A stretch of 29,237 nt of DNA from Clostridiaceae bacterium (GCA_012799825.1 JAAZKK010000050.1:1-29237), one strand, 5' to 3'; counted from the first letter of the stretch, positions 1 to 29,237 are shown. Notes: a model not told the origin generated them from the letters alone. Made by a program: numbers and translations.

Positions 1-204
1 ATGACGTGTTCCAGAGGGAACTCAACATTTTCGGGCTCGATCACGCCTCGGAGGTTGGGAACCTTCCAATAGTCGAGGGCTTTTTTGCCGCAGATATATT
101 TTCGAAGATAAGTAGCCATGTGACAAGCTTAATGGAGTATGTGATGTTGTTTGTCGACTTCTTTCCGACAAGAGCTCCCTTTAACTGTCAATAGCTGTCA
201 AAAA

Positions 205-380
205 GGCGTGGAAATACCGGAAGGAGAGGCGGGTGATAACGTGGCAAGGCAGAAGATGACTGAGGAAGGCGGAGGATAACGAGGCAGGGCGGGAGGAGAG
301 GCGGCGGGGCAAGGCAGAGAATGACGGGCTAATGTGGCGGAATGACGGAGGAAGGTTGAGGAATGACGGAGTAAAGCGGC
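205..380. repeat. Degenerate purine-rich tandem array, about 21-bp period, about 8 units
   Basis: Head-to-tail units read directly: gatgactgaggaaggcggag / gataacgaggcagggcgggag / aatgacgggctaatgtggcgg / aatgacggaggaaggttgagg / aatgacggagtaaagcggc. The overlapping ORF 181..546(-) is low-complexity and probably spurious. Confidence 0.6.
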
Positions 381-763
381 TGATTTCCAGTTGTTTAAAA
401 TTAATTGAAAAATTGACCTCGGTGGTTAAGTGTAAAGGCAATTCTAAGGAGTAGACAGACAAAAAGGCAATAGCAACTGGAACACTCAATCTGTCTTTAA
501 CAGACAGATTAGAGGTTGCATGGCAATCAATTGAGACAACGAGCACAGTCTGCTAATCGCTCGATGAGAATGGAAGCTATACGGATAATGATGGAGATGA
601 CTGGTACCGCTTGTTATTCAGAAACGGAAGAGGATTTCCTGCTGTGTAGCAACAAAAGAGATAACAATAAATACCTATTTGTCATTTGTTGTGAGAACTG
701 TAAGAGATTGTGCACTACGAAGTCACTTAGGTTAAGTGAAAATAATATGATTACAACGCAATA

Positions 764-811
764 AACGGGACACCTTTCGGATATCCGATCTATCAAAGAC
801 GGTGTCCCGTT
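764..811 (+). terminator. Strong stem-loop with an 11-bp perfect stem, possibly an orphan intrinsic terminator
   Basis: aacgggacacc (764-774) pairs with ggtgtcccgtt (801-811). A moderately T-rich tail (atgactttttgtattg) follows on the + strand. No convincing gene lies upstream. Confidence 0.35.
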
Positions 812-849
812 ATGACTTTTTGTATTGCTTATCGACCAAAACGTTAATC

Positions 850-1042
850 AGAAAAGACAAATCTTCCTTATTGCCTCGGATCATATGCTGTGAGTAGGTA
901 TATAGATGTTCTAGCGATGCAAGTATATCTTCCCTAGTGCCTAAGATCATGTGTTGTGCGCATATGTCCGGAAGCTCAAGAGATTTGAGTTTCCCTTTTC
1001 TTGGAACCCAGATCGTGTGACCTTTGCAGTTTCTCTCATTGA
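850..1042. repeat. Three decaying copies (about 63-67 bp period) of the 3' end of the DsrE-like gene
   Basis: atcttccttattgcctcggatcatatgctgtgagtagg (861-898) matches atcttccctagtgcctaagatcatgtgttgtgcgcat (927-963) at about 76% by my hand count. A third unit sits at 990-1027, and the related in-gene sequence at 1057-1094. Confidence 0.6.
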
Positions 1043-1381
1043 CTAGAAAATGAGGACTTCATATCCTTTATTTACATAGTTTGAGACTCCGGCGTGATTA
1101 TACATGTCTGAGAGGAATTTAAGTCCTGCCTTCTCATTGTCCTCATACACGCCGAGTGTCTTTGAACACCCAAGGCAGACGCCCTGAATTGTTCCGTCCT
1201 CTTTGAGCGAAAGATACAACCTGTTCTGTTCTTCTTCCAACTCCTTTGGAAGTACACATGACATGCCTTCTAGGACAATTTTTACTTCGTGTCCTGATTC
1301 CTTCAGCTGTTTGGCATTCATAAGCGCGTGCAAAAAGCACATTTTTTTACCATCCATTGTGTAAATCAAAATTTTTTTCAT
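1043..1381 (-). CDS. DsrE/DsrF-like small cytoplasmic protein (112 aa)
   Basis: I trimmed ORF 1043..1426 to the ATG at 1381, which follows caGGAGGttcaccacc. The sequence MKKILIYTMDGKKMCFLHALMNAKQLKESGHEVKIVLEG...GVCLGCSK...GYEVLIF resembles the DsrE_2-type family as I remember it. Confidence 0.75.
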   Translation of the reverse strand: MKKILIYTMDGKKMCFLHALMNAKQLKESGHEVKIVLEGMSCVLPKELEEEQNRLYLSLKEDGTIQGVCLGCSKTLGVYEDNEKAGLKFLSDMYNHAGVSNYVNKGYEVLIF

Positions 1382-1579
1382 GGTGGTGAACCTCCTGTTT
1401 TCTCTGAAAAAACGTATTGCATTCATTTCATAATTAAAGAAATTCTAGCATAGAGTATCTAAGCTCATCGATTGCATTCGTAGCTAAAAATATAAACAAG
1501 GCTGTGAATATCAACATAACACCTCTGATTTTTTGAGTGTTGTCATAATCGACGTATTTGGAAGCACGTAAATATCTGG

Positions 1580-1935
1580 GAGACAGCAATTGGGAGCCGA
1601 AAACATGCTATTGAGAGAATACAAACAAGAGCCTGAAACCGAGAGCCCGCAACTATGAGGCAGTAAATGGGGGCCTACAAATAAGAGTTTGGAACTGAGA
1701 ACCCGCAACTAAGAGACCGCAATGGGGAGCCTGCAACTAAGACCCTACAATCGGGAGTTCGCATCCATCGCAGGGAACACGACAACGGTCAGTGCAACTA
1801 AGACCCTGCAACCAGGAGTTTGCAACTAGAAGTCTGGAACTAGCAGAAAACCCATTGTCAGCATAATATATCTTGTTCGAACGTCGTCTTCTAACTACGT
1901 GCTCTAACACCGCCCTCTAACTCTCTCCTCTCACA
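1580..1935. repeat. Degenerate short-period (about 14-15 bp) tandem array plus ctaac-type units abutting ORF 1936..2202
   Basis: The motif recurs as cccgcaactaagaga / gcctgcaactaagac / cctacaatcggga / cagtgcaactaagac / cctgcaaccagga / gtttgcaactagaa / gtctggaactagcag. From 1885 to 1935 the units ctaactacgtgct / ctaacaccgccct / ctaactctctcct lead into tcatgctttgac, which is the stop of ORF 1936..2202. Confidence 0.55.
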
Positions 1936-2202
1936 TCATGCTTTGACATCGTGCTCTGTAAAATAATTTGAGATTATTGCTTCTTCAATACACTGTAATA
2001 AGGGATGACGGAAGGATGAGTCATCATTCATGAAATTTGGCGCCCATAACATTTTAATATAGAATAAAAGAAAGACTAAGCGTTGGTTGTTGTAATATTG
2101 TAGGCTATTAGTTAAAATTCCCTCTATTTTAACCACGCCAATCAAGCAACTGATTTTTCTTATAATTAATTCCGCTTGTACATTATATTTCGTCAAGATC
2201 AT
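1936..2202 (-). CDS. Hypothetical small protein (88 aa), uncertain
   Basis: An AT-rich ORF with no recognisable motif. The only support is that a 3'-end echo array of the kind seen next to real genes abuts its stop codon. Confidence 0.25.
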   Translation of the reverse strand: MILTKYNVQAELIIRKISCLIGVVKIEGILTNSLQYYNNQRLVFLLFYIKMLWAPNFMNDDSSFRHPLLQCIEEAIISNYFTEHDVKA

Positions 2203-2699
2203 GGCGCAACTGATTTTGAGGGAAAAAGCGCGGACAGTTTTTTAAGTTTCTTAAATCTCTTGGCCGACAGGGTAACAACCATGGTCAATTTTTCGATTTA
2301 ATTTGATTTTAAATCTGCTAAAAAACAAGATAAGCAACGATTTCCTTCTTTATTTGAAAAACTGACCGGAAAGAGGTTAGACGCTGATCACTTTTTCTAC
2401 ATTAATTGATTTTTTGGACGATGAGAGATAGAGCGCTGGCAGATCTTATTAAAAATCGAATTTTTGGCCGGCAGGGGAATTTTGACCCAAAGATCCTTCT
2501 AAATTGGAGTTCTTTCGTGTTGTTGACTGATTTTATTTCTTTTAGCAAATTCAGCTCACGAATGAGTGTTAATTGGGACGCTGAAATTGCACCTTCACTT
2601 CTTGGCATCACGGAAGCTTGCATGCTGAGCTGATTATACAAGATTAGGACTGATAGTGAGAAATGTTTACAGGATGGGAACAGTGACTCTAATTAAACT

Positions 2700-3013
2700 T
2701 AGTCTAATTGGCGCACGGCAGAGAGTTGTAGTGAATATCACACGCTTCACAATTCTAGCTTATCATTTCATCGCTGATGCAGGCGTTCTTTGTTGGTGCA
2801 AGCTCTCTTTACTAATGCAGCTACTCTTGGTTGATGCAGGCACTCATTGTTTGGGCTGGTTCTCTTTGTTGGGACAGACGCTCTTTGTTGGTTCAATCAT
2901 TTTTTGCTAATGTAGGCACTCATCGCTGATGCATGCGCTCTTTGCTGGAGCAGGCGCTCTCTGTCGGTGCCGTCAGAAAAATGTCATCTGCATCAAAAAA
3001 TGACTCAAGGATT
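2700..3013. repeat. About 19-bp-period degenerate tandem array, at least 12 units, grading into the 3' end of the flavoprotein gene 3014..3658
   Basis: Consecutive units are gcaggcgttctttgttggt / gcaagctctctttactaat / gcagctactcttggttgat / gcaggcactcattgtttgg / ... / gcatgcgctctttgctgga / gcaggcgctctctgtcggt. The gene end that follows is ttagccttgttggcgcaggtacc. Confidence 0.7.
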
Positions 3014-3658
3014 TTAGCCTTGTTGGCGCAGGTACCAATTGGGTGCATTGGGATCGTGACCATGTTTCTTGAGGTTTTTCAAAACCATTGATGTCAGGAA
3101 CTTTGAAAAAATACGAGTTACGAATCTACCGGGCGGGGTTTGAGCCTGTTCATAAAGACTGTCAAGTGAAGAGCTCCCTTCTGCGATATGTCTTATAAAC
3201 TGATTGAAAGCTGGCACGACCTTCTTTCTGCTCATGTGGTTCTCTAAGGGTTTGCCGTCCAGCATGGCGCCGCCACCCAACACAAAGCCGCCCTGCCATG
3301 AAAGATGGTTTTGCTCAGCGAATAATTGGAGAGTAGTTAGCCCGTGTCGGTGCGTATGGATGTAAGGCATGCCGCCGTTGATGATGCCGTACAGTTTCTG
3401 TCCCGAGAATCCGCCACTCCGGGATGCTGTCTCCAGCAACTCAATCAGTCTAGCCGGGTAGGTATTGATGTAACACGGGCCGGATATCACGATGGTTTCT
3501 GCCTGTTTCATGGTCATTGCAAATTCTTCGAGGCTGTCCTTTTGGGGCAAAAAAACGACATCTCCACCTGTGAGATTGCGTACGCGCTCCAACAACATGG
3601 CGCTCGTCCCTTTGCGTCTGGGGCTGGCACAAAGGAGCATGATATTGTACTTATTCAT
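3014..3658 (-). CDS. Flavodoxin-like-fold NAD(P)H-dependent oxidoreductase (214 aa)
   Basis: Full ORF with RBS cgcGAAGGAGatagcccATG. The N-terminus MNKYNIMLLCASPRRKGTSAML and the segment TIVISGPCYINTYPARL are typical of FMN-reductase / flavodoxin_2-type proteins. Confidence 0.85.
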   Translation of the reverse strand: MNKYNIMLLCASPRRKGTSAMLLERVRNLTGGDVVFLPQKDSLEEFAMTMKQAETIVISGPCYINTYPARLIELLETASRSGGFSGQKLYGIINGGMPYIHTHRHGLTTLQLFAEQNHLSWQGGFVLGGGAMLDGKPLENHMSRKKVVPAFNQFIRHIAEGSSSLDSLYEQAQTPPGRFVTRIFSKFLTSMVLKNLKKHGHDPNAPNWYLRQQG

Positions 3659-3903
3659 GGGCTATCTCCTTCGCGATTTTGCAAGACATGATTTCATCAA
3701 ACCTACACGTCCTCTAAAATTTCCGATTTTTTGTCAATCTCGTATGCGCACTGTCCTTCACTTTCACAATCTCGTTAATCTTGCATGCGCGCTACTATTT
3801 TCGACTTTTTGCCAATTTTGCATGTACTCTGCTTTTTTCGAAATTTTGTCAAATTAATATGTAGACTATCTCTTTTGCTTTTTCGTCACTAGCTTTCACG
3901 GAT
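3659..3903. repeat. About 37-49-bp-period array, about 6 units, echoing the 3' end of gene 3904..4443
   Basis: The gene end is tttacacgtgggctatctcttttgcgatcgc. Echo units are ttaatatgtagactatctcttttgctttttcg (3854), tttgcatgtactctgcttttttcg (3817), cttgcatgcgcgctactattttcg (3780), ctcgtatgcgcactgtcc (3739), cctacacgtcctc (3701) and ttcatgggctatctccttcgcg (3654). The last unit carries the RBS and ATG of gene 3014..3658. Confidence 0.7.
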
Positions 3904-4443
3904 TTACACGTGGGCTATCTCTTTTGCGATCGCTTCAATCGATACATTATCTGTGCGGCTATCGAGAATAAATGCACTTCCTTCAACGTTCATGATAATC
4001 CGGTTTTCTTTATGAAGGGCGAAAAAGGCTGACCGTTCCGCTTCGCTCAGCTTGTCGCCGACGCCGACCATATAGTAGTTCATCGTCTGCCCGCTCATGC
4101 CTTTGACGAGCTCCCCATTGTTCATATAATAGCGGGGATCGCCCAACGCGCACATACGGTCCATCACCTTCTTAATATGGTGGCTGACACCGCCAAAGAT
4201 CACGGGAGAAATCAGCACAAGCGCTCGACAGGCAGCGATTTTTGGCAGAACCTTTTGCATATCATCTTGGATTACACAACGGCCATACGTTTTCCCGCTG
4301 CAACTGCTACAGGCGGTACAAGGCCTGATATCTAGTTTGTTGACAGTAAAACGAACGACATGCGTTCCCGTATGGAGCACCGCTTCCCTCAGCGTTCTGC
4401 TCCAATTCCCTACGCGATTATCTGAAATAATCACTGCCGTCAT
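3904..4443 (-). CDS. Flavodoxin-family / iron-sulfur flavoprotein-like NADPH-dependent FMN reductase (179 aa)
   Basis: Full ORF with RBS aatcAGGAGGAcagcgcATG. It has the Cys cluster CTACSSCSGKTYGRC and the segment LVLISPVIFGGVSHHIKKVMDR, both typical of Isf-like flavoproteins. Confidence 0.85.
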   Translation of the reverse strand: MTAVIISDNRVGNWSRTLREAVLHTGTHVVRFTVNKLDIRPCTACSSCSGKTYGRCVIQDDMQKVLPKIAACRALVLISPVIFGGVSHHIKKVMDRMCALGDPRYYMNNGELVKGMSGQTMNYYMVGVGDKLSEAERSAFFALHKENRIIMNVEGSAFILDSRTDNVSIEAIAKEIAHV

Positions 4444-4647
4444 GCGCTGTCCTCCTGATTAGAGAGTAATTTTGCAAAAAAGGGGTGTCAAGGCTTTTTG
4501 TCATCGCAAGGTAGCGCTGTGTGTAAAATCTTGGCAAATAATCCAAAAAATTAGTCTAAATGTCCGATAAATTCTATGTTTTCTCATTTTGTGTCGTGTT
4601 ATTTTCAGTCCTTTTTTCCTATTATGAGTTCATCGGGAGGTTAGACC

Positions 4648-5457
4648 ATGGACACAAAAAAGATTGGCACATTCCTAAAAGAATTAAGAAACGAAAATAA
4701 TTTGACGCAAGAGCAATTGGCAGAGCGCATGTATGTTTCTGGCAGAACTGTTTCTCGTTGGGAAACTGGAGCGACTTTGCCGAACATTGCGATTCTTATC
4801 GACCTTTCTGAGTTTTACAACGTTGATATAAGAGAAATCCTCGATGGCGAGAAAAAGGAACAATTTGGTAGAAAGGGTCAAATCACGGAGGAGCAGTTTT
4901 TTGAAAGAAGGAGTCAGTTTGATCGAGATGCGGAAATTGTGGAGACGCGACAAATCATGGAAAGGGAGCAAGTTGAGAGAGAGGAACAGTTTGATCAAGA
5001 TGGGCATGTCGTAGCAGATGGACAGATAGATGAAGAGGGGCAAATCGCAGAAAAAGACCGGTTTGTTCGTGATGGGCAAGTAAAGAAAGGACAGATCACA
5101 GAGAAAGGCAAGTATGTCCGAGATGAACAGATTATGGAGAAGGAGCAGTTCATGGAAAAAGAAAAGGAGAATACGATTTTGAAAGTGGCTGAATACAATC
5201 AGGAAGAAAAAAAGCGGATAATAAAGAAAGGACAGATCGGATTTATTATCTGTTTCATCTTTTCTCTTATCAAATTCACTATCGAGATCCTTGACCTTAA
5301 GAATGATGAATTTTGGTACAAGCTGGCTGATTTTGTTCGCGGCTTCATTGATGGTTTTATTTTCGTAATGATCATTGTCGGCATCCTTTACACGACAAAT
5401 CTTTTGAATAAAATTAAGAAAACAAAACAGCGCATCCTCAGAGGTCACAAAGGTTGA
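4648..5457 (+). CDS. XRE (Cro/C1)-family HTH regulator with a repetitive acidic linker and a C-terminal membrane anchor (269 aa)
   Basis: RBS GGGAGGTtagaccATG. The N-terminus LKELRNENNLTQEQLAERMYVSGRTVSRWETGATLPNIAILIDLSEFYNV is a canonical HTH_3 region. Hydrophobic segments IGFIICFIFSLI and FIFVMIIVGILY lie near the C-terminus. Confidence 0.85.
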   Translation: MDTKKIGTFLKELRNENNLTQEQLAERMYVSGRTVSRWETGATLPNIAILIDLSEFYNVDIREILDGEKKEQFGRKGQITEEQFFERRSQFDRDAEIVETRQIMEREQVEREEQFDQDGHVVADGQIDEEGQIAEKDRFVRDGQVKKGQITEKGKYVRDEQIMEKEQFMEKEKENTILKVAEYNQEEKKRIIKKGQIGFIICFIFSLIKFTIEILDLKNDEFWYKLADFVRGFIDGFIFVMIIVGILYTTNLLNKIKKTKQRILRGHKG

Positions 5458-5947
5458 ATTTTGCTAACGAATTGAGATGAAACTTGTAATCATTCTTTTA
5501 ATCTTCTTTTATGAAGTGGTTCCGCGTTTTAGTGCTTACGAAGTCGGTTTAAAGGGCGGTTCCACTTCCTAATGTTTCAGTTTTCGGTTTAAGAGGAGTT
5601 TCATTACTTGGCCCTTCCGAGTTACGTTTCTTTGTCTGACAAACTTTTGAATCGCAGGCTGTAATTCTTAGATGCGAGAAATGCTCATCCGACTACAATA
5701 TCTTTAATACAGCAGCAACTCGTTATACAGATATGAAAGACTAATGCATAGACGTACTACTGTGTTACATGCGCTACTCGTTGCTCAGTCGTAAAAGCAT
5801 TGCGGCCAATCAGTTAAGCTTGATTGGCCACAGATACGTTATGCGCTATATGTTGTTAATCGTCATATATGCTCGTGAACTCGAAGCTACGGGGCATTTT
5901 CCCGAAATGTTCCGAACATTGCATGATCGTGCTCGTGGATCTTGAGT

Positions 5948-6640
5948 TTACGGAACAAATACCCACGCGATTTCTGCGATTTTCGACCCAGATACGGTAA
6001 CCTCTACGAAGGTCAAACCGAGGTTATTATGCTCTATCGCAGGTATCATCGTGTTTAAAAATGTCTTGTAATCTACTTTGATGGGGTCAACCGACAATAT
6101 TTCATCAGGTAAATAAAACTGCGTGTTTTTCGTCGTGACAAACCATTTTGTTGGACCAACAGTGCGAATGTATCCGTATTCTTGTGTATCTTCTTCTGCT
6201 TCTTCCTGTGAGCAGCCGATATCGATCATATATGCTACGACCGCATCCATTCCAGTGAGCCATTCTACTTGGTCAAATGCGAATTCCGTCTCATATGGTT
6301 CTGTTCCTGCAGACCAGTCGGTCATATAAGCATAAAAAGTCTCGATTTTAGGAGGCTTCGTTGTTGTCGTGGTAGTTGTCGTCGTTGTGGTTGTCGTGGT
6401 TGTGGTTGTTGTCGTGGTTGTCGTATCGTCTACGCTCGTCGGAGGTATGGACGTTGCCGGAATCTCAGAGGGTTCTGTGGGCAGATCAGTGGCTTCTGTC
6501 GTCAGAGAGCTTGACTCCGGTGTGGTTTTTGAACTGGAGCCAAAGTTAAATAATTTCAGTAAATCGACGCACCCGCTTGATAAAGTTAAAGCACAGAGTA
6601 GCAAAAAAACTAACACTAATGCGATGATGTGTTTTTTCAT
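5948..6640 (-). CDS. Lipoprotein with a poly-threonine linker (230 aa)
   Basis: RBS GAGGAGGAtaaattATG. The signal peptide MKKHIIALVLVFLLLCALTLSSGC contains a lipobox (LSSGC). It is followed by a Ser/Thr/Pro-rich region, a run of more than 20 Thr, and a globular C-terminal domain of unknown family. Confidence 0.8.
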   Translation of the reverse strand: MKKHIIALVLVFLLLCALTLSSGCVDLLKLFNFGSSSKTTPESSSLTTEATDLPTEPSEIPATSIPPTSVDDTTTTTTTTTTTTTTTTTTTTTTKPPKIETFYAYMTDWSAGTEPYETEFAFDQVEWLTGMDAVVAYMIDIGCSQEEAEEDTQEYGYIRTVGPTKWFVTTKNTQFYLPDEILSVDPIKVDYKTFLNTMIPAIEHNNLGLTFVEVTVSGSKIAEIAWVFVP

Positions 6641-7159
6641 AATTTATCCTCCTCTTCGTGATAGCGCCACAAGGCAGAAATCCATTCGCTTCATTGATTC
6701 GTGTCGTCTAAGGTCAGTACGATTGGTTGTATGTCGTCAAACACCATATTTCAAGCCGCTTTCCCATGCCGTTTACGATCTGCTCGTCTGCCCGCACATG
6801 AGTACATGAGATCGGCTTTCTTACAACTTTTTCCAATTTCCAAATTAAATAGTTTTTTTTCTCAACAAAATGAAGAGAGTACAAAGAAGATCGCACTTCC
6901 CTTTTCACTTTTCAACTTCAATTTGTTCTTACTTCTATTTTAGGAGCCGTTGAATGCGCTGAACAGCTACCAATTATGGTAGGTTTGTGCAAAGAAGACA
7001 TGCCTAATCTGTGGTAAGGTCATTTTTTACGAATGATTTACAGAAGATGTATTCCAGCATTAGTGAAGGCCGGCATGAGACCGACCTTCGACATAAATAA
7101 AAATATCACAATCGGTCAGAGCGAATCTTGCGGAAAGATCGCTGACCATTTTATCCTCG

Positions 7160-7449
7160 CGTCTCCCGTGCTGATACGTTGGCTAGCCTCAATTAGACTA
7201 CGTCGGCAGATCTCAGACAAAAGTCTCAGTACATCCCTCTGAGCAGATCGCGCTTAATCGCGTTGGTCGACTTTGACTAGAGCGAGCATGAAAGGTCACT
7301 GACCCTTTCATCCCTGCGTTCTCCGTGCTGATCAGGCTTAAACGCGTTAGCCTGCTTTGATCAGAGTAAGCCGGGCAGATCGCGAGAAAATTCTCCGTAC
7401 GTCACCCAAGGCTGGTCAGGCATGAACGCGTTGACCGACTTTGATTTGA
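7160..7449. repeat. About 86-bp-period array: three decaying copies of the lyase gene 3' end (the fourth copy is the gene end itself, 7408-7495)
   Basis: U3 (7325-7407) is gtgctgatcaggcttaaacgcgttagcctgctttgatcagagtaagccgggcagatcgcgagaaaattctccgtacg. U4 is aggctggtcaggcatgaacgcgttgaccgactttgatttgatcagagcgagtcgggcaggtcgcgggaaaatttttctgcgag. Older units U2 and U1 are still recognisable. Confidence 0.75.
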
Positions 7450-8895
7450 TCAGAGCGAGTCGGGCAGGTCGCGGGAAAATTTTTCTGCGAGTCTCTCCTG
7501 CCAGTCGGACAGGGGGGCGAGTTTCCCGAGGAAAAAACGCAGGATTTTCGGTTCGTGCTCGAAGCGCAGGCCGCCGATCAAATCGCGGTTTTCAAAGAGC
7601 CACGTCACGCGGTCGATCGCGTAGTCGATCTGGCTCAGGGTGAAAACGCGGCGCGGCATCGCAAGCCGCAGGAGCTCCATCTCAGCGATCTTCTCATTCC
7701 CGTCATCATCTCTATTTTCGCTTAGTGTACCGCGCTCCATCCCCCGGATACCACCGGCAATGTAGAGAGCCGCGGCAAGTGCTGCTGCGGGATACTGTTC
7801 TTGAGGAATATGCGGAACGAAACGTGAGGCGTCGAGATGACAGCCAAGTCCGCCCGCCGGCGTCACGACCGGAATGCCGCGTTTTTCGAGTTCGTCGACC
7901 ATGTAGGCGATAAACTCAGGGCCTTGTGACGTTATGGCAAGATCGAGCGTCTCCTCAAGCCCGACGGCAATCGCCTCAATCTCGCGAACGGACATGCCGC
8001 CATACGTGAGAAATCCTTCGTTCAGCACGATCAGCTCTTTGAGCGGATTGACAAGTTCGCTCTCTCTCATGCAGATGCCGCCACCTCGCGCAAAACCGAG
8101 CTTTCTCGCAGAGAAATAAATGATGTCGCACTCGTCAGCAACAGCACGCATGATTTCTCTAAGCGAGAGATCTTTGCATTCCTCATCCTTGATTTTCAAG
8201 AAATAGAGATTGTCCTGAAGAAGTGACGCGTCCATGACAAGCGGGATATCATGCTTCCGACAAATCGCCGCTGCCTCTTTCAGATTCCCGAAGGAGAACG
8301 GTTGCCCGCCGATCAGGTTTGTCCCCGCTTCGATACGGACAAATGGCACTCGATCATTATTCTCCTCCAAAAACTTTGCTAGCGCTTTCGTGTCAAAATT
8401 GCCTTTGAACGGGTAATCACTTTGACAGTTAAGGCCTTCCGGGATAAGAAATTCGATAACCTCACCGCCACAGCGTTCGATATGTGCTCTTGACGTTGTA
8501 AAGTGATAGTTCATTGGCACAATATCACCCGGCTTCACGAGCAGATCTGCGAGAACCTTTTCACAGCCGCGACCTTGGTGGGCAGGCAAAAAGTGTTCCA
8601 TTCCGAAGATGTCTTGGACTGTTTTCTCGAGCCGGAAAAAGGACTCGCTGCCGGCGTAGGCGTCGTCTGCCCTCATCATCGCTGACTGCTGGCGATCGCT
8701 CATCGCGTTGACGCCGCTATCGGTCAACATGTCGAGAAAAATATCCTTATTGTGTAAAAGATAGAGATTGCTCGATGCTTCCTTTAGACGGGCGAGCCGT
8801 TCCTCAACCGGCAGCAGATTCAACTGCTGTACAATGCGCACCTTATGGCGCTCGAGCGGGATTTTCCTGCCGTCAAAAAAAGAGATGGTTTCCAT
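7450..8895 (-). CDS. Beta-eliminating lyase of the tryptophanase / tyrosine phenol-lyase family, with TPL-like signature residues (481 aa)
   Basis: I trimmed ORF 7450..9066 to the ATG at 8895, behind taAGGAGGAacgaacgc. Family motifs are DMLTDSGVNAMSD, the PLP-Lys context YFSARKLG, and GGMSVREIEA. The sequence has FTTS (TPL Thr124 position; tryptophanase has Asp) and LRFF (TPL Phe448; tryptophanase has His). Relative to TPL there is a C-terminal tail of about 18 aa. Confidence 0.9.
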   Translation of the reverse strand: METISFFDGRKIPLERHKVRIVQQLNLLPVEERLARLKEASSNLYLLHNKDIFLDMLTDSGVNAMSDRQQSAMMRADDAYAGSESFFRLEKTVQDIFGMEHFLPAHQGRGCEKVLADLLVKPGDIVPMNYHFTTSRAHIERCGGEVIEFLIPEGLNCQSDYPFKGNFDTKALAKFLEENNDRVPFVRIEAGTNLIGGQPFSFGNLKEAAAICRKHDIPLVMDASLLQDNLYFLKIKDEECKDLSLREIMRAVADECDIIYFSARKLGFARGGGICMRESELVNPLKELIVLNEGFLTYGGMSVREIEAIAVGLEETLDLAITSQGPEFIAYMVDELEKRGIPVVTPAGGLGCHLDASRFVPHIPQEQYPAAALAAALYIAGGIRGMERGTLSENRDDDGNEKIAEMELLRLAMPRRVFTLSQIDYAIDRVTWLFENRDLIGGLRFEHEPKILRFFLGKLAPLSDWQERLAEKFSRDLPDSL

Positions 8896-8986
8896 GCGTT
8901 CGTTCCTCCTTAGCTTTTTTCGATGCCATCGCGGCATCTCGCATGATCCGGCACTCATCGAGCCGGTGATCCGGGGGACGAAATGG

Positions 8987-9027
8987 AATAAAAAACGTCC
9001 GCCCGACATTTTTTGTCGAGAGGACGT
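8987..9027 (-). terminator. Intrinsic terminator of the T-box expression platform
   Basis: RNA ACGUCCUCUCGAC-AAAAAAU-GUCGGGCGGACGU forms a 13-bp stem with one mismatch and one G-U pair, followed by UUUUUAUU. Its 5' arm overlaps the 3' strand of the antiterminator. Confidence 0.85.
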
Positions 9028-10906: not shown

Positions 10907-10926
10907 CGCATCCTCCTTGAGTTTTT

Positions 10927-18420: not shown

Positions 18421-18587
18421 GATACTTACCTCCTCATTTTCTTTTACTATGGTGTATCATTGTGTATCCCGCAGGTGTCCTCACTCGACAGAAGTGTGTC
18501 CTGTCTTTTTAGTGGGGAGTTTCACACAAACGGGAAACTTCCAACCGGATTTATCCGCCTCCACAGAACACTGCGCAGCGGGTGCCT

Positions 18588-20987: not shown

Positions 20988-21135
20988 GACGAGGCCGGTG
21001 TAAAAAACTGTACTTGTGCTAAGAGTGACATCTTATCCGCAATTTGAAACATCTTCGGGTACAAAGAAATAGACCGAATTGTATGACTGTGATCTAGTTT
21101 TGAAAAAGAAAAGAGCCGTCTCAAAAAGTGAAGCA

Positions 21136-21559
21136 GTCATTAGTCTGTCTATACCGGATAATCGCTGGGTCAAGTTGACGAACCTTATTTCTCGGCCCTT
21201 TGTAGAAATGAAGTACCGGAAGAATTTTCGCGGTAATCGTGGATAGCAAGCTCATTGCGCATCACAGACATCCATCTTGCGGCCAGGCACGGCTTTAATA
21301 TATTGTGTATTCACAAGCATGGCGCGCACGTTCATCACTTCCAAGATGTTGTAGATGGGCTTCTAATATGAACCCGTACTCTCCATTGCCACCATCTGAA
21401 TCTTTCGTTTCAATAACCATTCGCAAAGCACAATCAGATCTCCGGTCATCGTCCCAAATGTCCATATCTCTTGTCGATTCTTCTCGTCTAAACAGCAGGA
21501 AACGATCTTTGCTTAGCGAATATCCATCCCACAACAACGCTCATATACAACTTTCATAG
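21136..21559 (+). pseudogene. Frameshifted remnant of a transposase N-terminal domain (IS4/IS5-superfamily, InsH-N-like)
   Basis: Frame 1 reads SIPDNRWVKLTNLISRPFVEMKYRKNFRGNRG and then hits a stop. Frame 2 reads ...NMNPYSPLPPSESFVSITIRKAQ. The remembered consensus is IPeDNrWVkLaklIPW...kY...F..n.Gn ... eNPY...PFdpS..v.FRKR. No DDE domain follows. Confidence 0.35.
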
Positions 21560-22228
21560 AATCCTCCCATAGAGCGCGGCATCTCATATCCCTTGATCTA
21601 TTACGCGTGCTCGGCTAGGCCGGCAACAATGTGTGGTGCAAATAAGATGCCAAACCAGACTACATAACAGGCTTGGAGCACTATTGTGACCTCGATCTTT
21701 GTCTGCTAAGAAAATTCTACGCTAAAATCGCCGCAACAACCCGGTTATGTAGCGCATGGCGAGGAATAGGACACGACGCCTCATGGAGGACTACATGTTG
21801 TCTTTGCTATCTGTCCAATGTATCAGTGTTTTAATTCTTTCTCTGTTATTAACGCCTCAAAGTCCTTCTAAGAGCCTTCTTTTCCGATTTAGGTCAATGT
21901 CGCTGAAATAAATTCTACTTTTCCAAAATTGGTCATGATCCCAGGATAACCTCCGCATAATCGTCAAAACCATGGTATCATTCGTGTATTCCACACCGTT
22001 ATAAAAGACTCTAATCATATTGTCGGGGAAGAATTTTCATGGCAAGAATAGAGCGTAAGAATCGCATCTTCCCCACTCCGCTTTCAAGATCATCTTTTGT
22101 TAATTTTAGGAGCCTATTTCTTTACTGAATAGCTGCTTAATAGGGTAGGTAAGCGTAAAATGCAAACCACTGTTAACAATTCTGGATAAATATAAATTAG
22201 AAGAAAAATAGGATGAGAATCGTGGGTT

Positions 22229-22879
22229 TCAAACAACTGCTTCGTCAAAAACACCGTCTGATACGAGACGTGATCGATCACACCGTGTCAAAGTGTCTTG
22301 GAGTACCAATGTGTCGTGCTCGCGCGCAATCTTTTCATAAAAATCAGACGCTTCCAGTGACAGAATACAGCCGCAGTATTTTTGGCGATAGAGCCCTATT
22401 TCTTTTGCCATCTGCTGGCCGCGACGGTAACCGTTACGCCAATCGCATGGAACAAACTCGATCGAGTACGGCTCACATGCGCGCCTGCCTTCCTCAATCA
22501 AAACATCGCGATTTTGCCACGGACTGACGAGTAACGTCGTGCTGACGTATTTGATGCCTAGTCTGTGCGCTACTTTTGCCAGGTGCTCAAGACGAACACG
22601 ATAACAAAAACGGCACCGCCCAGCACCGTCATTTGCGCGTTCTCGCCAAGCACTCGGCACACAAAGTGGATTGACGATCAACGGAATTTCGTAATATGCA
22701 GCCGCCTTGCTGGCGTTTTCCATACGGCGGCGCCATTCCATATTTGGATGAATATTGGGGTTAAAGAATAGCAATGTTACGTCGACGCCGGCATGGAGAA
22801 GCGTGTCGAGCGGCCACATTGAGCACGGACCGCAACATTGATGAAGCAGCCATTTCTGACCTTTATACTCCTCGTTCAT
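22229..22879 (-). CDS. queH: Epoxyqueuosine reductase QueH (DUF208), 216 aa
   Basis: LLHQCCGPCS, FFNPNIHP, RCRFCYRVRLE, STTLLVSPWQN and YRQKYCGCILS are the QueH Cys motifs. Confidence 0.9.
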   Translation of the reverse strand: MNEEYKGQKWLLHQCCGPCSMWPLDTLLHAGVDVTLLFFNPNIHPNMEWRRRMENASKAAAYYEIPLIVNPLCVPSAWRERANDGAGRCRFCYRVRLEHLAKVAHRLGIKYVSTTLLVSPWQNRDVLIEEGRRACEPYSIEFVPCDWRNGYRRGQQMAKEIGLYRQKYCGCILSLEASDFYEKIAREHDTLVLQDTLTRCDRSRLVSDGVFDEAVV

Positions 22880-23066
22880 ATGAACCCCTGTCCATCGTAT
22901 AGATCATTGATTGTGATTTGCGCGTCTGGCAAAACACAGGAATCGTCTCGTATTGTGAACGGCTACATAGCAAGCTCGTTATTTTGGCCTTTGCACACCC
23001 CGGAGAACTGTCGCGTCTTATGAACGGCCACACAGCAAACTCGTTTTTGGCTACTGCACTCCGCGT
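22866..23066. repeat. Two decayed tandem copies (about 100-bp period) of the last ~100 bp of ruvB
   Basis: cgttcatatgaacccctgtccatcgtatagatcattgattgtgatttgcgc (22873-) matches cgttcacatgtcaccctgaccatctattagatcgttgagcgtgatttgcgc (23063-) at about 79% over 52 nt by hand count. ggaatcgtctcgtattgtgaacggc, agaactgtcgcgtcttatgaacggc and the ruvB sequence ggaattgtcgcgtgtcttgtaaggc are related. Confidence 0.75.
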
Positions 23067-24185
23067 TCACATGTCACCCTGACCATCTATTAGATCGTTG
23101 AGCGTGATTTGCGCATCAGAAACTCCGCGGGAATTGTCGCGTGTCTTGTAAGGCAACCCGAGATGCTCATACCCTCCCCTTGTCAAAATACGTCCGCGCG
23201 GCGTCTTCGCGATAAAGCCAATTTGCATTAGGTATGGCTCGTAAATATCTTCGATCGTCACCGAATCTTCTCCGGTCGAAGCTGCCAAAGTATCTAAGCC
23301 AACGGGGCCGCCGTCGTAAATTTCCGCAATGATGCGCATGATCAGCCGGTCATTGCCGTCGAGCCCGATTTCATCAATGTCAAGAGCCTTCAAACCAATA
23401 TCACATATTTCGCGATTGATGACGTTGTCGCCGATGATTTGCGCGTAATCACGCATGCGACGCAAAAGCCTTATAGCGACACGCGGCGTACCGCGGCAGC
23501 GAGTTGAAAGCACCTCTAGGCCATCGGCATCTATGCCGACGCCGAGCAAGCCGGCATATCTTGTCAAAATCAACGCAATGTCAGCAGGTTTATAGAGATC
23601 GAGACGCTGAATCAGTCCGAATCGGTCACGCAGCGGTGATGTCAGAAGACCGGCGCGTGTCGTCGCGCCAATCAGCGTAAAATGCGGCAAATCCAGTCGG
23701 ATTGAACGCGCAGAAGGACCTTTTCCGATCATAATATCCAGCGCGTAATCTTCCATAGCCGGATAAAGAATCTCTTCGACTTGGCGGTTTAAGCGATGTA
23801 TTTCATCGATGAACAGCACATCGTGCTCATTGAGATTGGTGAGAATAGCGGCAAGATCGCCTTGGCGCTCAATCGCAGGCCCGGACGTAATGCGCATCTC
23901 CGCCCCCATCTCATGCGCGATGATGCCGGCTAGCGTCGTTTTTCCCAGACCGGGCGGACCATAAAGGAGAACGTGATCGAGCGCTTCCCCACGTGCTATC
24001 GCCGCGTCGATCGCAATTTTCAAGTTCGCTTTAACCTTGTCTTGGCCGAAGTAGTCATTCCAACGAACCGGTCGAAATTGGATTTCTTCTTTGTCTTCAC
24101 GGAGCGCCTTGCGGGAAAGAACTCGTTCTTCCGCCTGTTCACTCTCATCGTCATATTCAAATGGTTCTCTGTGAAAAAAATCCAT
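23067..24185 (-). CDS. ruvB: Holliday junction branch-migration helicase RuvB, 372 aa
   Basis: Walker [26 protein letters not shown] and [13 protein letters not shown]. The protein has N-terminal acidic and C-terminal extensions relative to typical RuvB. Confidence 0.97.
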
Positions 24186-24275
24186 ACCTACCTCGCCGTC
24201 GTTGAGCTTCTTTCACCAAAGCGCATTATCTGCCTATGTCATCTTATCAGATCCTGTCTTTGTGAGGTTACAGGA

Positions 24276-24887
24276 TTAGACGATCGCAAGGTGTTTGAGC
24301 GCGCGTTTCAGCAGCGTTTCGACGGTGTCGCCTGGCTCAGGATTGGCGCGTCGTATCGCTTCGTCGGCTTCTGCTCGGCTATAGCCTAAGACCGCCAAGG
24401 CGACCCCTGCTTCTTCGATAATCCCGCTGCTGGGTGAAAGCGTCGGTGTCGCAGACAAATCCTCGCGCGTAATGGGGACACCGGATTTTTTCAGTTTGTC
24501 CTTTAACTCAAGGATCATGCGCGCGGCACTTTTTTTGCCGACACCACGAATGGCGGTGAGCCGCTGTACATCTTCTTGTAAAATAGCAAGCGCAAACTCG
24601 CCTGGCGACACGGCGTCAACAATCTGAAGCGCCAATTTCGGACCGATCCCGCTCACTGTCTGGACGAGTTCAAAGAGTTTCTTTTCTTCCTCTGCTTGAA
24701 AACCAAAGAGGGCAAGCTCATTTTCACGGACGTGCAAGAACGTGTAAACAGTGCATTCTTCGCCGGAAGGCGGAAGCGATGCAACCATACGTGCAGGCAT
24801 CTCAATTAGAAAGCCGATGCCGCTCTGCTCCAGAACAATTTGTTGCGTTCCCTTGCGGACAATACGCCCTTTTATGCTTGCGATCAT
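24276..24887 (-). CDS. ruvA: Holliday junction DNA-binding protein RuvA, 203 aa
   Basis: I trimmed the ORF to the ATG at 24887, behind AAGAGGTGcattggt. MIASIKGRIV...GIGFLIEMP...VSGIGPKLAL...L..IRGVGKKSAARMILELK. Confidence 0.95.
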   Translation of the reverse strand: MIASIKGRIVRKGTQQIVLEQSGIGFLIEMPARMVASLPPSGEECTVYTFLHVRENELALFGFQAEEEKKLFELVQTVSGIGPKLALQIVDAVSPGEFALAILQEDVQRLTAIRGVGKKSAARMILELKDKLKKSGVPITREDLSATPTLSPSSGIIEEAGVALAVLGYSRAEADEAIRRANPEPGDTVETLLKRALKHLAIV

Positions 24888-24912
24888 ACCAATGCACCTC
24901 TTTTCGTCTCGT

Positions 24913-25223
24913 CTATAGGCGAGCACCCTCGCCCATTCGTAATTTACCCATCTGTAGTTTAGCGCATCCGTCTATCCATAGGCTAGCACCACCATATGCC
25001 AGCGGGCTAGCACCACCATATGCCAGCGGGCTGGAACCACCACATGCCTGCGGACTAACACCACAACATGCCAACGAGCTAACACCTCCACATGCCGACG
25101 GGATAGCACAGTCACTCTTCAGTGGGTTAAGCGCGAACGCCGTTCGTTAGACTAAACACGGATACCCATCATTAAGTTAAGCACGAACACACCTCATTAG
25201 GTCAAAGCGAAAGCCCAACTGTG
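24913..25223. repeat. 24-bp-period tandem array, about 12 units, filling the ruvC-ruvA spacer and grading into the ruvC stop region
   Basis: ggctagcaccaccatatgccagcg occurs twice exactly (24981-25004 and 25005-25028). It is followed by ggctggaaccaccacatgcctgcg, gactaacaccacaacatgccaacg, agctaacacctccacatgccgacg, ..., ttaagcgcgaacgccgttcgttag, ttaagcacgaacacacctcattag and tcaaagcgaaagcccaactgtg. The ruvC end is tcagcgccctcgccgcttcggcgg. Confidence 0.8.
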
Positions 25224-25754
25224 TCAGCGCCCTCGCCGCTTCGGCGGCCCCTTCTGGTATCCGCCGACGGCGCGGGTTGAATCGAGATCACCCGTATGCG
25301 CGTGGCAAATCGCGACAGCCAAGGCGTCCGCGGCATCATCGGGTTTGGGAACATCTTTCAAATTAAGCAAAATGCGCACCATTTCCTGAACCTGCGCTTT
25401 TTCTGCGTGACCGTAACCGGTAACGGCTACTTTGACTTGCATCGGCGTGTATTCATGAACGGGCAGGTTCTCCCTCGCAGCCGCGACGACGGCCACACCG
25501 CGAGCTTGAGCCGTACCCATGGCCGTTGTCGTATTGCGATAGAAAAACAATTCTTCGACGGCGACGCAGTCAGGCCGATACAATTGAATTAGGGAATCGA
25601 TGCCTTGATCAATGGCCAAAAGTCGTTCAGGAAAGGGCATGCCCGCCGACGTCTCGATCGTTCCGAAATCAAGCGTATTAAAACGCCGACCGTCATGTTC
25701 GACCACGCCGAACCCTGTAATCGCATAACCGGGATCGATACCCAGAATGATCAC
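25224..25754 (-). CDS. ruvC: Crossover junction endodeoxyribonuclease RuvC, about 176 aa
   Basis: IILGIDPGYAITGFGVV, VAVEELFF and DAADALAVAICHAH. The ORF caller starts at the TTG at 25760. I prefer the GTG at 25754, which lies 6 nt after AAAGGTGG. Confidence 0.92.
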   Translation of the reverse strand: MIILGIDPGYAITGFGVVEHDGRRFNTLDFGTIETSAGMPFPERLLAIDQGIDSLIQLYRPDCVAVEELFFYRNTTTAMGTAQARGVAVVAAARENLPVHEYTPMQVKVAVTGYGHAEKAQVQEMVRILLNLKDVPKPDDAADALAVAICHAHTGDLDSTRAVGGYQKGPPKRRGR

Positions 25755-25821
25755 GTTCAACCACCTTTCACGCGCGTTCTGTAAAACCTATTATAAATGG
25801 GAATTTGTCCGTTTTTGCCCG

Positions 25822-26835
25822 TCAGCTTTCCATGAAAGTGTGTAGCGCATTGATGTTCTTCACCCAATCAATATCATACATCTCGAGATCGTAAATGTAT
25901 TTCATCGCTTCATACGTTTCGAGAGGAAGCGACAACTGATCGAATGAATAGCCCTTATACTGCGGCGCTTTGAGGATGAACTGCATCATCTCCTGATCGG
26001 TGAGATTCGTCTTCACGCAGGGCATCAGCGCTTTGACCGAATCGTTAAGACGCGTAAGGTCGCTGCTCTTCATCTTATCAAAAAGCGCTAAAATCACCTT
26101 CCGCTGACGTCCCATGCGATTGAAATCGGAGTCGATTTTTCGAATGCGCGCATACGCAAGCGCTTGCTTACCGTTTAATAGCGCCTTTCCCACCTTAAAG
26201 TCCGCTTGTCCGGCCTCCTTATGCGAATTCAGGATCTTAGCTTCGGCTTCCGTAAGGACAATATCGACACCGCCCACCCGATCGATCGCCGTCTGAAATC
26301 CGCCAAAATCGGTTTGCATGTAACGCGTGACGTGCACTCGAAAGTTGCGCTGAACGGTCTTCAAGAGCAGCCTCGGGCCTCCCCACGTATGCGCTGCATT
26401 CAGCATGAAAAGCGGCACGTAAAAGTCGCGGAAAGCCGGATCGGGGTCGTTAGGGATGCTCACGTAAATCCCTCTCATCAGTGATGACAGATGAAGCGAC
26501 TTTGTTTTGTCGTTGATGGTGAGCAGCATGATCGCATCGGCACGTCCGTGACTTTCCGGATCACGAGTGTCGGTACCTATGATGAGTATATTCGTCAGCC
26601 CTTTGTCATCGACTAAGGGGACCTGCATCCCGTGACGCATATGATCAGGGACATCAAGCTGTTCAAGACCTGTTTCGATCGGAATCGGATCGTCGATCGG
26701 CTCGTAATCTCGAAGCCCGACGATCGAACGAAGGTACACGTACCCTAAAAGAACGACAGCAAGAAGCAAGCCGAGGACCACACCAAAAGCGATCAACGGC
26801 CAGCGTCTACGTTTCGAAGAATGTCGGGCAACCAT
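25822..26835 (-). CDS. LytR-CpsA-Psr (LCP) family cell-envelope phosphotransferase, 337 aa
   Basis: N-terminal TM segment WPLIAFGVVLGLLLAVVLLGYVY, plus ILIIGTDTRD...GRADAIMLLTIN and ALAYARIRK motifs. No obvious SD. Confidence 0.9.
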   Translation of the reverse strand: MVARHSSKRRRWPLIAFGVVLGLLLAVVLLGYVYLRSIVGLRDYEPIDDPIPIETGLEQLDVPDHMRHGMQVPLVDDKGLTNILIIGTDTRDPESHGRADAIMLLTINDKTKSLHLSSLMRGIYVSIPNDPDPAFRDFYVPLFMLNAAHTWGGPRLLLKTVQRNFRVHVTRYMQTDFGGFQTAIDRVGGVDIVLTEAEAKILNSHKEAGQADFKVGKALLNGKQALAYARIRKIDSDFNRMGRQRKVILALFDKMKSSDLTRLNDSVKALMPCVKTNLTDQEMMQFILKAPQYKGYSFDQLSLPLETYEAMKYIYDLEMYDIDWVKNINALHTFMES

Positions 26836-26845
26836 GATTTGGTAC

Positions 26846-26883
26846 CAAAAAAAGATGCTCGCAGGATACCCGCGGCCGCATCT
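26846..26883 (-). terminator. Intrinsic terminator after rpsT
   Basis: Minus-strand RNA AGAUGC-GGC-CGCGGG-UAU-CCUGCG-A-GCAUCU followed by UUUUUUUGG. It sits between the rpsT stop and the LCP start. Confidence 0.7.
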
Positions 26884-27233: not shown

Positions 27234-27377
27234 GTTTTAGCGATAGTGCCATGAGCCAAGAAGAACGCAAAGAAGAACGCAAGAAAGACGTTTGGTTTTT
27301 GTATATTTTCATTTTTACTTTATTCGTCTTTGTCTTGCTTCTTAGTAAGTTCTGCGTTCTATAATGTAATAAAATCA

Positions 27378-27405
27378 TTGACAAGAATAAAGCATTAAGG
27401 ATAAT
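27378..27405 (+). promoter_or_regulatory. Candidate sigma-70-type promoter for the Ldh_2-family gene
   Basis: TTGACA (27378-27383), a 16-nt spacer, then GATAAT (27400-27405). It lies about 30 nt upstream of the RBS AGAGGAGG and the TTG start at 27437. Confidence 0.5.
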
Positions 27406-27436
27406 ACTATTGTGATACAAGAGAGGAGGTTCACAC

Positions 27437-28567
27437 TTGTCTTATCAATACTTATCGTATAGCGTTCTACGTCAGTTTTGTGTGGATGTTTTTCAACGGT
27501 TTGGCTTTACCGAAAGTGAAGCATACATCATTCAAGATGTTCTATTATCGAGCGATTTAAGCGGTATAGAATCACACGGCATCCAACGCATGGTTCGCTA
27601 TCATAAAGGCATAGAAAAGGGCATGATTGATGTGCACGCCAAGCGTGAAATTGTGTTTGAGACGCCTATTTCCGCCGTCTTCGATGCGCATAACGGGATG
27701 GGACAGCTTGCGGGATATTATGCTATGGAACTTGCAATCCAGAAAGCAAAGGCGAACGGTGTGAGCATCGTAACTGTGCGCAATTCAAACCACTTTGGCA
27801 TTGCGGGATACTATGCGAAAATGGCTTGCAATCAAGGATTGATTGGGCTTTGTTGCACCAATTCGACTGCGATTATGGTACCTACATACGGACGGGTTGC
27901 TATGCTAGGCTCCAATCCCATCGCGTGCGCATTCCCCGCGGAACCAAATGATTTTCTGTTTGATTCGTCCACTACCGTGGTCACGCGTGGCAAATTGGAA
28001 GTTTACGATAAAATGCAGATACCGCTCCTTGAGGGATGGGCACTGGATAAAGACGGCCATCCTTCTACTGATGCATCGGACGTTCTTGCCAACATCGCCG
28101 GTAAAAATGGAGGTGGCATTATGCCTGTCGGCGGAAACAAGGAAGAGCTGGGCTCCCACAAAGGCTATGGCTTTGCCATGCTGTGCGAAATCTTCTCCTC
28201 TATTCTGTCGCTTGGTTGCACTTCTGATGAATGCAACATAAATAACAAAGGTGGTATTTGCCATGGTTTCATGGTTATCAATCCCGCGCTCTTTGGCGAT
28301 GCCGAACAGATCAAACAGCATTTATCCTCGTATCTTTGCAAGATTCGCAATTCACCAAAAGCAGAGGGGCAAACACGCATCTACACGCACGGAGAGAAAG
28401 AGCTTGAGGCAATTGCCCGAGCCAAAGCACACGGCATCCCCGTTCAAGACAATACCATCATGGAACTATCCAATTTGTGCGATTACTTGGATTTGGATTT
28501 TACTGAATATTTTGGTGAACAGTTTTTGAATTTCAAAGACAGTGGGTATACCAGTCAGTACTCTTAA
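27437..28567 (+). CDS. Ldh_2-family (malate/L-lactate/ureidoglycolate/sulfolactate dehydrogenase type 2) oxidoreductase, 376 aa
   Basis: TTG start behind AGAGGAGGttcacac. GIESHGIQRMVRY, VRNSNHFGIAGYY, GSNPIA and SHKGYGFAML are family motifs. Confidence 0.9.
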   Translation: MSYQYLSYSVLRQFCVDVFQRFGFTESEAYIIQDVLLSSDLSGIESHGIQRMVRYHKGIEKGMIDVHAKREIVFETPISAVFDAHNGMGQLAGYYAMELAIQKAKANGVSIVTVRNSNHFGIAGYYAKMACNQGLIGLCCTNSTAIMVPTYGRVAMLGSNPIACAFPAEPNDFLFDSSTTVVTRGKLEVYDKMQIPLLEGWALDKDGHPSTDASDVLANIAGKNGGGIMPVGGNKEELGSHKGYGFAMLCEIFSSILSLGCTSDECNINNKGGICHGFMVINPALFGDAEQIKQHLSSYLCKIRNSPKAEGQTRIYTHGEKELEAIARAKAHGIPVQDNTIMELSNLCDYLDLDFTEYFGEQFLNFKDSGYTSQYS

Positions 28568-28699
28568 AGAAATGGAGTAGAAGTAGATTTCCTTACGAAT
28601 TGAATGGTTCGTTAAGCGCTGTTCTGTACTAATTGAAACAGCGTTTGATGGATCCGGAGCTTCAGACAAAAACAGCCGACCTAGATGCTTAGTATTATA

Positions 28700-28905
28700 A
28701 ATAAAAATCTAGGAACGTCGTGGAAGATACAACACCAGATAGATACATGTCCGGAAGGATACACCGCTAATAAGATTCACCGCAGGGAAGATATATGGCC
28801 AAAGAGATTCAAGGCCTAAAAGGTTACAACACCGGAAAGATAAATGGGCAAAAAAGATACACCGCCGGAAGGATGCATGAGCAAAAAGATATACCGCCGG
28901 AGCCT
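28700..28905. repeat. About 16-bp-period degenerate tandem array, about 11 units (approx GATACACCGCCGGAAG)
   Basis: gatacaacaccagata / gatacatgtccggaag / gatacaccgctaataa / gattcaccgcagggaa / gatatatggccaaaga / ... / gatacaccgccggaag / gatgcatgagcaaaaa / gatataccgccggagc. ORF 28709..28912(-) over it is probably spurious. Confidence 0.7.
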
Positions 28906-28958
28906 CTGCCATAACTACACCATCTCATGAACTTAGCAACACAAACGGAGCCTCGATC

Positions 28959-29237
28959 ATGGCGCAGCCTTCTCATGAACCTAGCAATACAAACGGAACC
29001 TCGATCATGGCAAAGCCATCTTTCGAATCTAGCGACACAAGCGGAGCCCCTGCCATGACCGCATCATCTCACGAAACCAACGACAACGAATATCATGACG
29101 AGTTTACGAGGGCGATCCCTGATGAATCGCTGTACAAGCACTATGCGTTCGATGTAGAGACGATAAGGAGGATGCGAAAAAATGGTGTCCCGAGTTTTGA
29201 GTACAGTTACACATGTGGCAATCCCGGTTGTCAATTT
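28959..29237 (+). CDS. Partial CDS running off the window: an N-terminal region of 16-aa tandem repeats followed by a Cys-containing segment, function unknown
   Basis: The frame is open from the stop at 28878-28880 to the window end, and the first ATG is at 28959. Three to four 48-bp in-frame units encode PSHELSNTNGASIMAQ / PSHEPSNTNGTSIMAK / PSFESSDTSGAPAMTA, followed by ...DESLYKHYAFDVETIRRMRKNGVPSFEYSYTCGNPGCQF. It is absent from the ORF track because no stop lies within the window. Confidence 0.4.
   Translation, partial: MAQPSHEPSNTNGTSIMAKPSFESSDTSGAPAMTASSHETNDNEYHDEFTRAIPDESLYKHYAFDVETIRRMRKNGVPSFEYSYTCGNPGCQF

Follow-up and report, generated by a model that had tools for sequence, protein, structure and literature searches.

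Deletion bias is generally thought to shrink the non-coding DNA of bacterial genomes. In mycobacteria, the mycobacterial interspersed repetitive units (MIRUs) constitute a single dispersed family found at many loci, whose intercistronic tandem units preserve overlapping stop and start codons. The present work concerns a 29,237-nt stretch from a Clostridiaceae bacterium (GCA_012799825.1, JAAZKK010000050.1:1-29237; the window), in which spacers between genes, foremost that between ruvB and queH, hold arrays of diverged tandem copies. Most likely, stretches of local sequence are duplicated in tandem and lost again here with high frequency, and selection decides which of the copies persist. Comparable material has been described elsewhere. 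For Ehrlichia ruminantium, an obligate intracellular alphaproteobacterium with a coding density of about 64%, Collins et al. (2005) and Frutos et al. (2006), as summarised in PMC10710844, are reported to describe long intergenic regions with locus-specific non-coding tandem repeats that actively expand and contract between strains. Reversible microhomology-mediated tandem duplication has been shown in fission yeast (PMC8639346), and the intergenic regions of prokaryotes contain an excess of close direct repeats (Huang and Mrazek, 2014; PMC4060949).

As is reported of E. ruminantium, the window combines long spacers with locus-specific arrays whose units are gained and lost from strain to strain. 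The host differs in belonging to free-living digester Clostridia with ~83% coding DNA, the units are 14-191 bp long, and for one spacer the origin from two overlapping genes can be followed directly. A genome-wide excess of intergenic repeats and spacers longer than those of congeners are both present, albeit in a much milder form than the 64% coding density reported for E. ruminantium would represent. With variable-number tandem repeats (VNTRs) and microhomology-mediated duplication the arrays share local head-to-tail copies that arise and revert, a preference for in-frame units within genes, and strain variation (PMC8639346); they differ in having no demonstrable border microhomology, in a density far above that of congeners, and in the age of many copies, which have long since decayed and are not subclonal. 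The survey of Huang and Mrazek dealt with short exact words (8-10-mers) and not with gene-end copies or lineage-specific bursts (PMC4060949). A first-pass annotation of the window had stated that no described bacterial system produces such a pattern. This was too strong, as the intergenic repeats of E. ruminantium (PMC10710844) and VNTR or microhomology-mediated duplication (PMC8639346) are of the same kind.

The arrays show the features of locus-specific minisatellites or VNTRs, namely head-to-tail copies above chance, locally derived units and copy-number polymorphism between strains; the unit sources identified are the ends of ruvB, queH and the gene at 7450. The ruvB-end copy also recalls MIRUs in preserving a stop/start overlap with queH. 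A MIRU-like dispersed intercistronic family was nonetheless rejected, because genome blastn gave each array its own sequence. Duplications of the attL/attR type, which integrating elements leave in gene ends on either side of foreign DNA, were likewise set aside, as the ruvB-queH spacer contains nothing but copies of the sequences flanking it and the arrays are 2-10 adjacent units with no insert. CRISPR arrays were excluded by units that abut and diverge gradually, with no unique spacers. The window thus presents a lineage-specific, natural, unusually dense and still active case of ordinary mutation, not a new molecular system or genetic element.

Genome and comparisons

The window is contig C82, less its final base, of a 2.31-Mb metagenome-assembled genome (MAG) of 129 contigs with 47% GC, hereafter G000. 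Judged by its RuvB relatives, it belongs with uncultured Saccharofermentanales of anaerobic digesters, and the metagenome runs carrying the organism derive from biogas fermenters, bioreactors and digesters. G004 denotes another species of the genus at about 90% nucleotide identity. Arrays were scored as the best match run on any diagonal (lags 8-200) against 100 dinucleotide-preserving shuffles and were also called with Tandem Repeats Finder (TRF); 14 coding stretches put through the same diagonal test gave z <2.5, with one at 4.5. Gene-end echoes, that is, spacer copies of a gene terminus, were sought by matching spacers to the last or first 60-150 nt of the genes on either side, with shuffled spacers as controls. 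For genome-wide counts, genes were taken as the longest non-overlapping open reading frames (ORFs) of at least 90 aa, which are crude calls, and 3' echoes were compared with sampled DNA of five relatives, including two congeners.

Duplication across the ruvB-queH junction

The clearest case is the following feature.

22880-23066, minus strand: ruvB-queH spacer, a junction duplication; 22867-23157 matches itself at lag 191 (z 26), with an inner unit of ~60 bp

Within it, 22880-22966 copies the 3' end of ruvB (23071-23157) with 72-76% identity over 51-81 nt, a score that none of 200 shuffles reached (z 16), and a four-way alignment places a copy of the initial ~26 nt of queH at ~23040-23066. Read in the ruvB frame, the queH-adjacent copy ends in a TGA that overlaps the ATG of queH, an ATGA arrangement. 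The inner unit was duplicated once more (22941-23066). The first-pass annotation had assigned a period of ~100 bp to 22866-23066, which is really 191 bp with the inner ~60; the periods it quoted for other arrays were about right. In a sister lineage whose RuvB is 93% identical (L085-L087), ruvB and queH overlap by 4 nt, again as ATGA, and in a more distant relative (L088) they are separated by a 4-nt gap. These alignments show a tandem duplication that spanned the ruvB-queH junction and left each gene intact once, its central part being today's 187-nt spacer.

The duplication has a traceable history. G004 shares this layout and adds two ~67-nt units, which brings its spacer to ~321 nt. In a strain from run X17 that is 97.7% identical to the window, position 22898 is joined straight to 23090 in repeat register, so that ruvB has one end again. 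As the duplication is found in G004, which is more distant, a secondary collapse of the spacer is the best reading of the X17 state. With the duplication old and collapsed in X17, the 28% divergence of its copies beside a near-identical strain without them is therefore no paradox. Copying by an error-prone process of the diversity-generating retroelement kind, which would yield copies "born diverged", was ruled out by the presence of this old event in G004 and by the ordinary mutation spectrum: the changes are 66% transitions across all four bases, and the sole RVT_1 match lies on another contig. The ruvB-end copy upstream of queH is conserved between G000 and G004 about as well as coding DNA, as would be expected if it still carries the queH ribosome-binding region, which formerly lay within ruvB.

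The series formed by these genomes, from overlap to 187 nt, to 321 nt in the sister species and to collapse in a close strain, shows how the genes at an operon junction can be moved apart and reveals a source of new non-coding sequence. Here, a free-living lineage grows its spacers through local duplication.

Genome-wide distribution

Echoes of gene ends are not confined to the window. Where the spacer downstream measured 100 nt or more, 80 of 956 gene ends carried a 3' echo that scored higher than 99% of mismatched controls, as against 23 of 961 gene starts at the same threshold; at a stricter cut-off (score >30), the counts were 50/1155 for 3' and 13/1161 for 5' echoes. The five relatives gave 2 in 559 (0/141 and 0/155 in the two congeners, then 1/67, 1/96 and 0/100; Fisher p 5e-7). 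TRF arrays occur at 130 per Mb, compared with 44 and 54 in two congeners; of the spacers 100-800 nt long, 21% are periodic, where the same two congeners reach 0-2.4% and genomes further removed 7-14%. Spacers have a median length of 122 nt (50 nt in these congeners), and the coding fraction is 0.83 by the crude calls (0.87-0.89 in congeners). The view that the excess of tandem duplications is lineage-specific is thus essentially right. The first-pass annotation had proposed lineage-specific tandem duplication at gene 3' ends followed by decay; the contrast with congeners, the polymorphism and the ordinary spectrum bear out the duplication and decay, but not the targeting of 3' ends.

Relative to random placement, arrays are enriched 3.4x in intergenic DNA and 1.9x across stop codons, and are depleted across starts (0.5x) and within genes (0.58x). 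Among the intragenic arrays, 115 of 129 (89%) have a period divisible by three, and such in-frame arrays are about twice as frequent in G000. The order of spacer, then stop, then start and gene interior fits purifying selection acting on untargeted duplications. A stop codon persists at the homologous position in 31 of 34 echoes, in agreement with the first-pass claim that units often begin with the complement of a stop, which is seen at the 7450 gene and ruvB; the original codon is kept in 25 of the 34, about as many as an identity of 87% predicts. Changes between gene and echo show an excess of G/C-to-A/T alongside the predominance of transitions, similar to the differences between strains. 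That echoes should lie beside minus-strand genes only was a peculiarity of the window, as the genome holds 24 on the plus and 23 on the minus strand, and a 5'-end echo occurs within the window itself at 28898-29048.

G000 is also larger (2.3 Mb) than its congeners (1.5-1.8 Mb). GC content is ~47% in both G000 and G004 and 54-58% in the congeners, and the coding density of the two is lower; these differences point to a branch-specific change in mutation or selection regime.

Strain variation

Orthologous spacers were to be compared for copy-number polymorphism according to the first-pass annotation, and such a comparison does reveal differences among strains and with G004, including the full collapse described above. 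The differences measure 24, 60, 81, 96 and 191 nt and fall in unit register. X17 lacks one 24-bp unit at 24981, contigs from other runs lack the 60-nt unit at 22941-23002, and variants of the 48-bp array at 28898-29048 are 96 nt and 81 nt shorter in other strains. The distance between ruvC and ruvA is just 133 nt in a diverged strain; it is 336 nt in the window, where the 24-bp array makes up the surplus over the 148 nt of the sister lineage. The ruvA-ruvB spacer (24274) carries 370 nt extra in a more diverged strain (runs X3 and X10) and measures 90 nt in G000 and the sister lineage.

Origin of the spacers

Under the favoured explanation, stretches of 14-190 bp would be copied head to tail, most likely via replication slippage or template switching, and would frequently be lost again. 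Selection would purge copies that disrupt a reading frame or a start region, so that survivors lie in spacers, span stop codons or remain in frame within genes. A junction-spanning duplication would keep one intact copy of each gene, while the surplus 3' end, stop codon included, and whatever was copied of the next gene's start would turn into new spacer. Such spacer would then decay through ordinary point mutation and might duplicate again, giving the graded "echoing" look. Slippage appears to be the mechanism instead of unequal recombination, and the 3' bias would be a product of selection, not of targeting.

Several points weigh against this account. Inspection of the eight youngest arrays revealed no clear repeats as border microhomology, with decay and TRF trimming limiting the view. 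Loss of standard repair genes was rejected as the cause, since mutS, mutL, xseA and recJ are all present in G000, as they are in all twelve sampled congeners. Many window arrays could not be traced to a gene end, and for these only local tandem duplication is shown. The crude ORF calls make 5' boundaries, and with them the 5'/3' contrast, approximate, and the greater frequency of echoes at convergent junctions (7.2%) than at co-directional ones (4.1%) is not significant (p 0.07). Furthermore, exact long repeats collapse in short-read assemblies, which censors the distribution of copy ages.

The 3' bias might instead be mechanistic, with mutation itself directed to the 3' ends of genes, for example through template switching at sites where a replication fork runs into transcription that is terminating, or through mRNA 3' ends that are reverse-transcribed and then recombined into the genome. 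Echoes of 3' ends are indeed 4x commoner than those of 5' ends (50 vs 13), arrays that span a stop often end just past it, with 0.8-1.0 of the unit inside the gene in 14 of 33, and the genome encodes one reverse transcriptase (RVT_1), on contig C31 rather than the window contig. However, under such targeting the strongest enrichment would be expected for arrays that span a stop, and they are exceeded by pure spacer arrays. The ruvB duplication took the start of queH along, 5' and in-frame intragenic arrays occur, and the mutation spectrum is an ordinary one that lacks any adenine-specific or otherwise unusual bias. Short ancestral spacers are enough by themselves to account for units that end soon after the stop. 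Such targeting is unlikely. It is also rather doubtful, if marginally less so, that the excess reflects something beyond relaxed selection, be it an inherited alteration of the replication or repair machinery or some process linked to gene ends, by which tandem duplication would outpace the usual deletion bias in this lineage. If true, this would constitute a bacterial route to new non-coding DNA and to the separation of overlapping genes.

That the arrays are selected functional elements, serving translation uncoupling, operon spacing or as promoters, terminators or binding sites, is suggested by the coding-like conservation of the queH-adjacent copy between G000 and G004 and by the stop codon kept in most echoes. 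The identical stops, however, are at the level expected from overall identity, units of different loci have no sequence in common, and copy number is free to vary, to the point that a close strain lacks the ruvB-queH spacer. Promoter-like and terminator-like matches in the arrays stand at shuffle level, and a scan of the window with Rfam at gathering thresholds gave no match, nor one to a T-box leader at 9067-9300. A role as terminator, promoter or known RNA, the first of which the first-pass annotation had entertained, was rejected for lack of support, and a selected function in general seems quite improbable. Descent of the arrays from a mobile element or a repeat family scattered through the genome is a far more remote explanation: it does apply to 1-458, including the array at 205-380, which has nine more copies in the genome, but all other arrays match only themselves or a neighbouring gene genome-wide. 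Finally, a non-biological origin through mis-assembly of a strain mixture, scaffolding or generated sequence has almost no probability left. The genome is a MAG in many contigs, and arrays occur at contig ends at 2x the expected frequency. Yet the related species G004 has a homologous diverged array, and identical arrays recur in Logan, ENA and JGI contigs from various samples, years and assemblers, which led us to discard the artefact that the first-pass annotation had listed. Logan contigs from other studies (X3, 2024; X4, 2021) show 0 differences over 22869-23265, 24952-25383, 22026-23085 and 24315-25088; ENA, JGI and Logan contigs (L081-L084) are 99.98-100% identical over 18229-26879; and eight further contigs are 99.7-100% identical over 1-8658, with array lengths unchanged.

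The arrays are of practical consequence, too. Such arrays break short-read assemblies and yield spurious ORFs, and they could serve as strain markers for digester communities.

Arrays within the window

Besides the ruvB-queH spacer, the window holds the following features, with the strand given where one applies.

1-458: end part of a dispersed multicopy element, with 82-99% identical blastn copies on nine other contigs
205-380: ~21-bp array inside the 1-458 element; lag 21, z 5.3; TRF 235-288 and 319-371; no local echo
859-1019: decayed local array of ~66 bp at 64% identity; z 16; genome-unique; in the spacer below ORF 1043-1426
1610-1843: local array of 56 bp (1620-1746) and 14 bp (1806-1843); TRF; lags 56 and 14, z 25; unique
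2767-2970: local 19-bp array of ~10 decayed units; TRF 2787-2896; z 32; unique; same in eight independent contigs
3659-3903: spacer between two FMN-reductase-like genes (Pfam), with a 37-bp array at 3777-3852; TRF; 3777-3888 at lag 37, z 11
5760-5947: claimed "irregular" array, unsupported; best diagonal score 11, z 2.3; no TRF row
7237-7481, minus strand: 84-89-bp units entering the 3' end of a beta-eliminating-lyase gene (7450-9066); 7237-7445 at lag 84, z 17
24948-25109: 24-bp array in the ruvC-ruvA spacer (24888-25223); TRF 24981-25109; z 49
28799-29048, plus strand: 33-bp array (28818-28901), then 48-bp array (28898-29048); TRF; 28799-28887 at lag 33, z 13.5

The first-pass annotation had listed ten arrays. 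Nine of these regions were significant in the diagonal test (z 5-49; lags 21, 66, 56, 19, 37, 84, 191, 24 and 33), and the tenth, at 5760-5947, was lost. Rows reported by TRF in the window span 235-371, 1620-1843, 2787-2896, 3777-3852, 24981-25109 and 28818-29048. Whole-genome blastn agreed that no dispersed element underlies the arrays except at 205-380, which lies within the multicopy 1-458 element; each of the others matches only itself or the adjoining gene.

Each array had also been said to echo its neighbouring gene terminus, which proved true of ruvB and the 7450 gene. At the latter, 7361-7392 copies 7450-7481 including the stop codon (lag 89; 84% over 32 nt), and again 0/200 shuffles reach the score (z 7.5). 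The 48-bp array enters the 5' end of an ORF starting at 28959, forming a 5'-end echo (flank-to-spacer z 16). Gene-end echoes in the window are statistically solid for ruvB and the 7450 gene only, plus this one 5'-end case. Marginal matches were obtained for ~20-nt motifs in 3659-3903 that resemble the 3' end of gene 3904 (p about 0.02-0.025), for the gene end at 5948 against its spacer (p about 0.02) and for the 1610-1843 array against the ORF at 1936 (p 0.09). In the shuffled-spacer test, the resemblance of the 859-1019 array to the terminus of the 1043 gene was not significant.

Similarity that decays with distance from the gene, likewise proposed for the arrays, holds for a minority of them and fails for the 24-bp array. 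There, the two units farthest from ruvC are identical, and a unit identity matrix finds just five to six distal units alike (71-100% identity). The units beside ruvC show background identity only, leaving a match to the ruvC end unsupported and ruling out an array that morphs gradually into that end.

The nine other copies of the 1-458 element lie mostly at contig ends. The element extends past the contig start into a 323-aa ORF without a Pfam family (L169:8540-9511), and a similar ORF sits after queH in the sister lineage (L085:6146-7120); the element may be an unclassified insertion sequence. An ORF of 121 codons at 181-546 lies on the 21-bp array without independent support and is probably spurious, a product of the repeats.

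Other observations concern neighbouring genes. The minus-strand ORF 5948-6640 encodes a putative secreted protein or lipoprotein, and at 6358-6424 it contains an in-frame 9/12/15-bp repeat that forms a threonine-rich linker. Elsewhere in the genomes, the ORF for the exonuclease VII large subunit is 496-502 codons long in G000 and G004 (G000:C121:25358-26233, G004:C232:6106-6981), compared with 379-446 in other intact congeners. X17 joins 9365 to 22192 via 90 other letters, with read depth over 9366-22191 of about zero, which marks these 12.8 kb, the region of the GC-rich operon, as an island that varies between strains.

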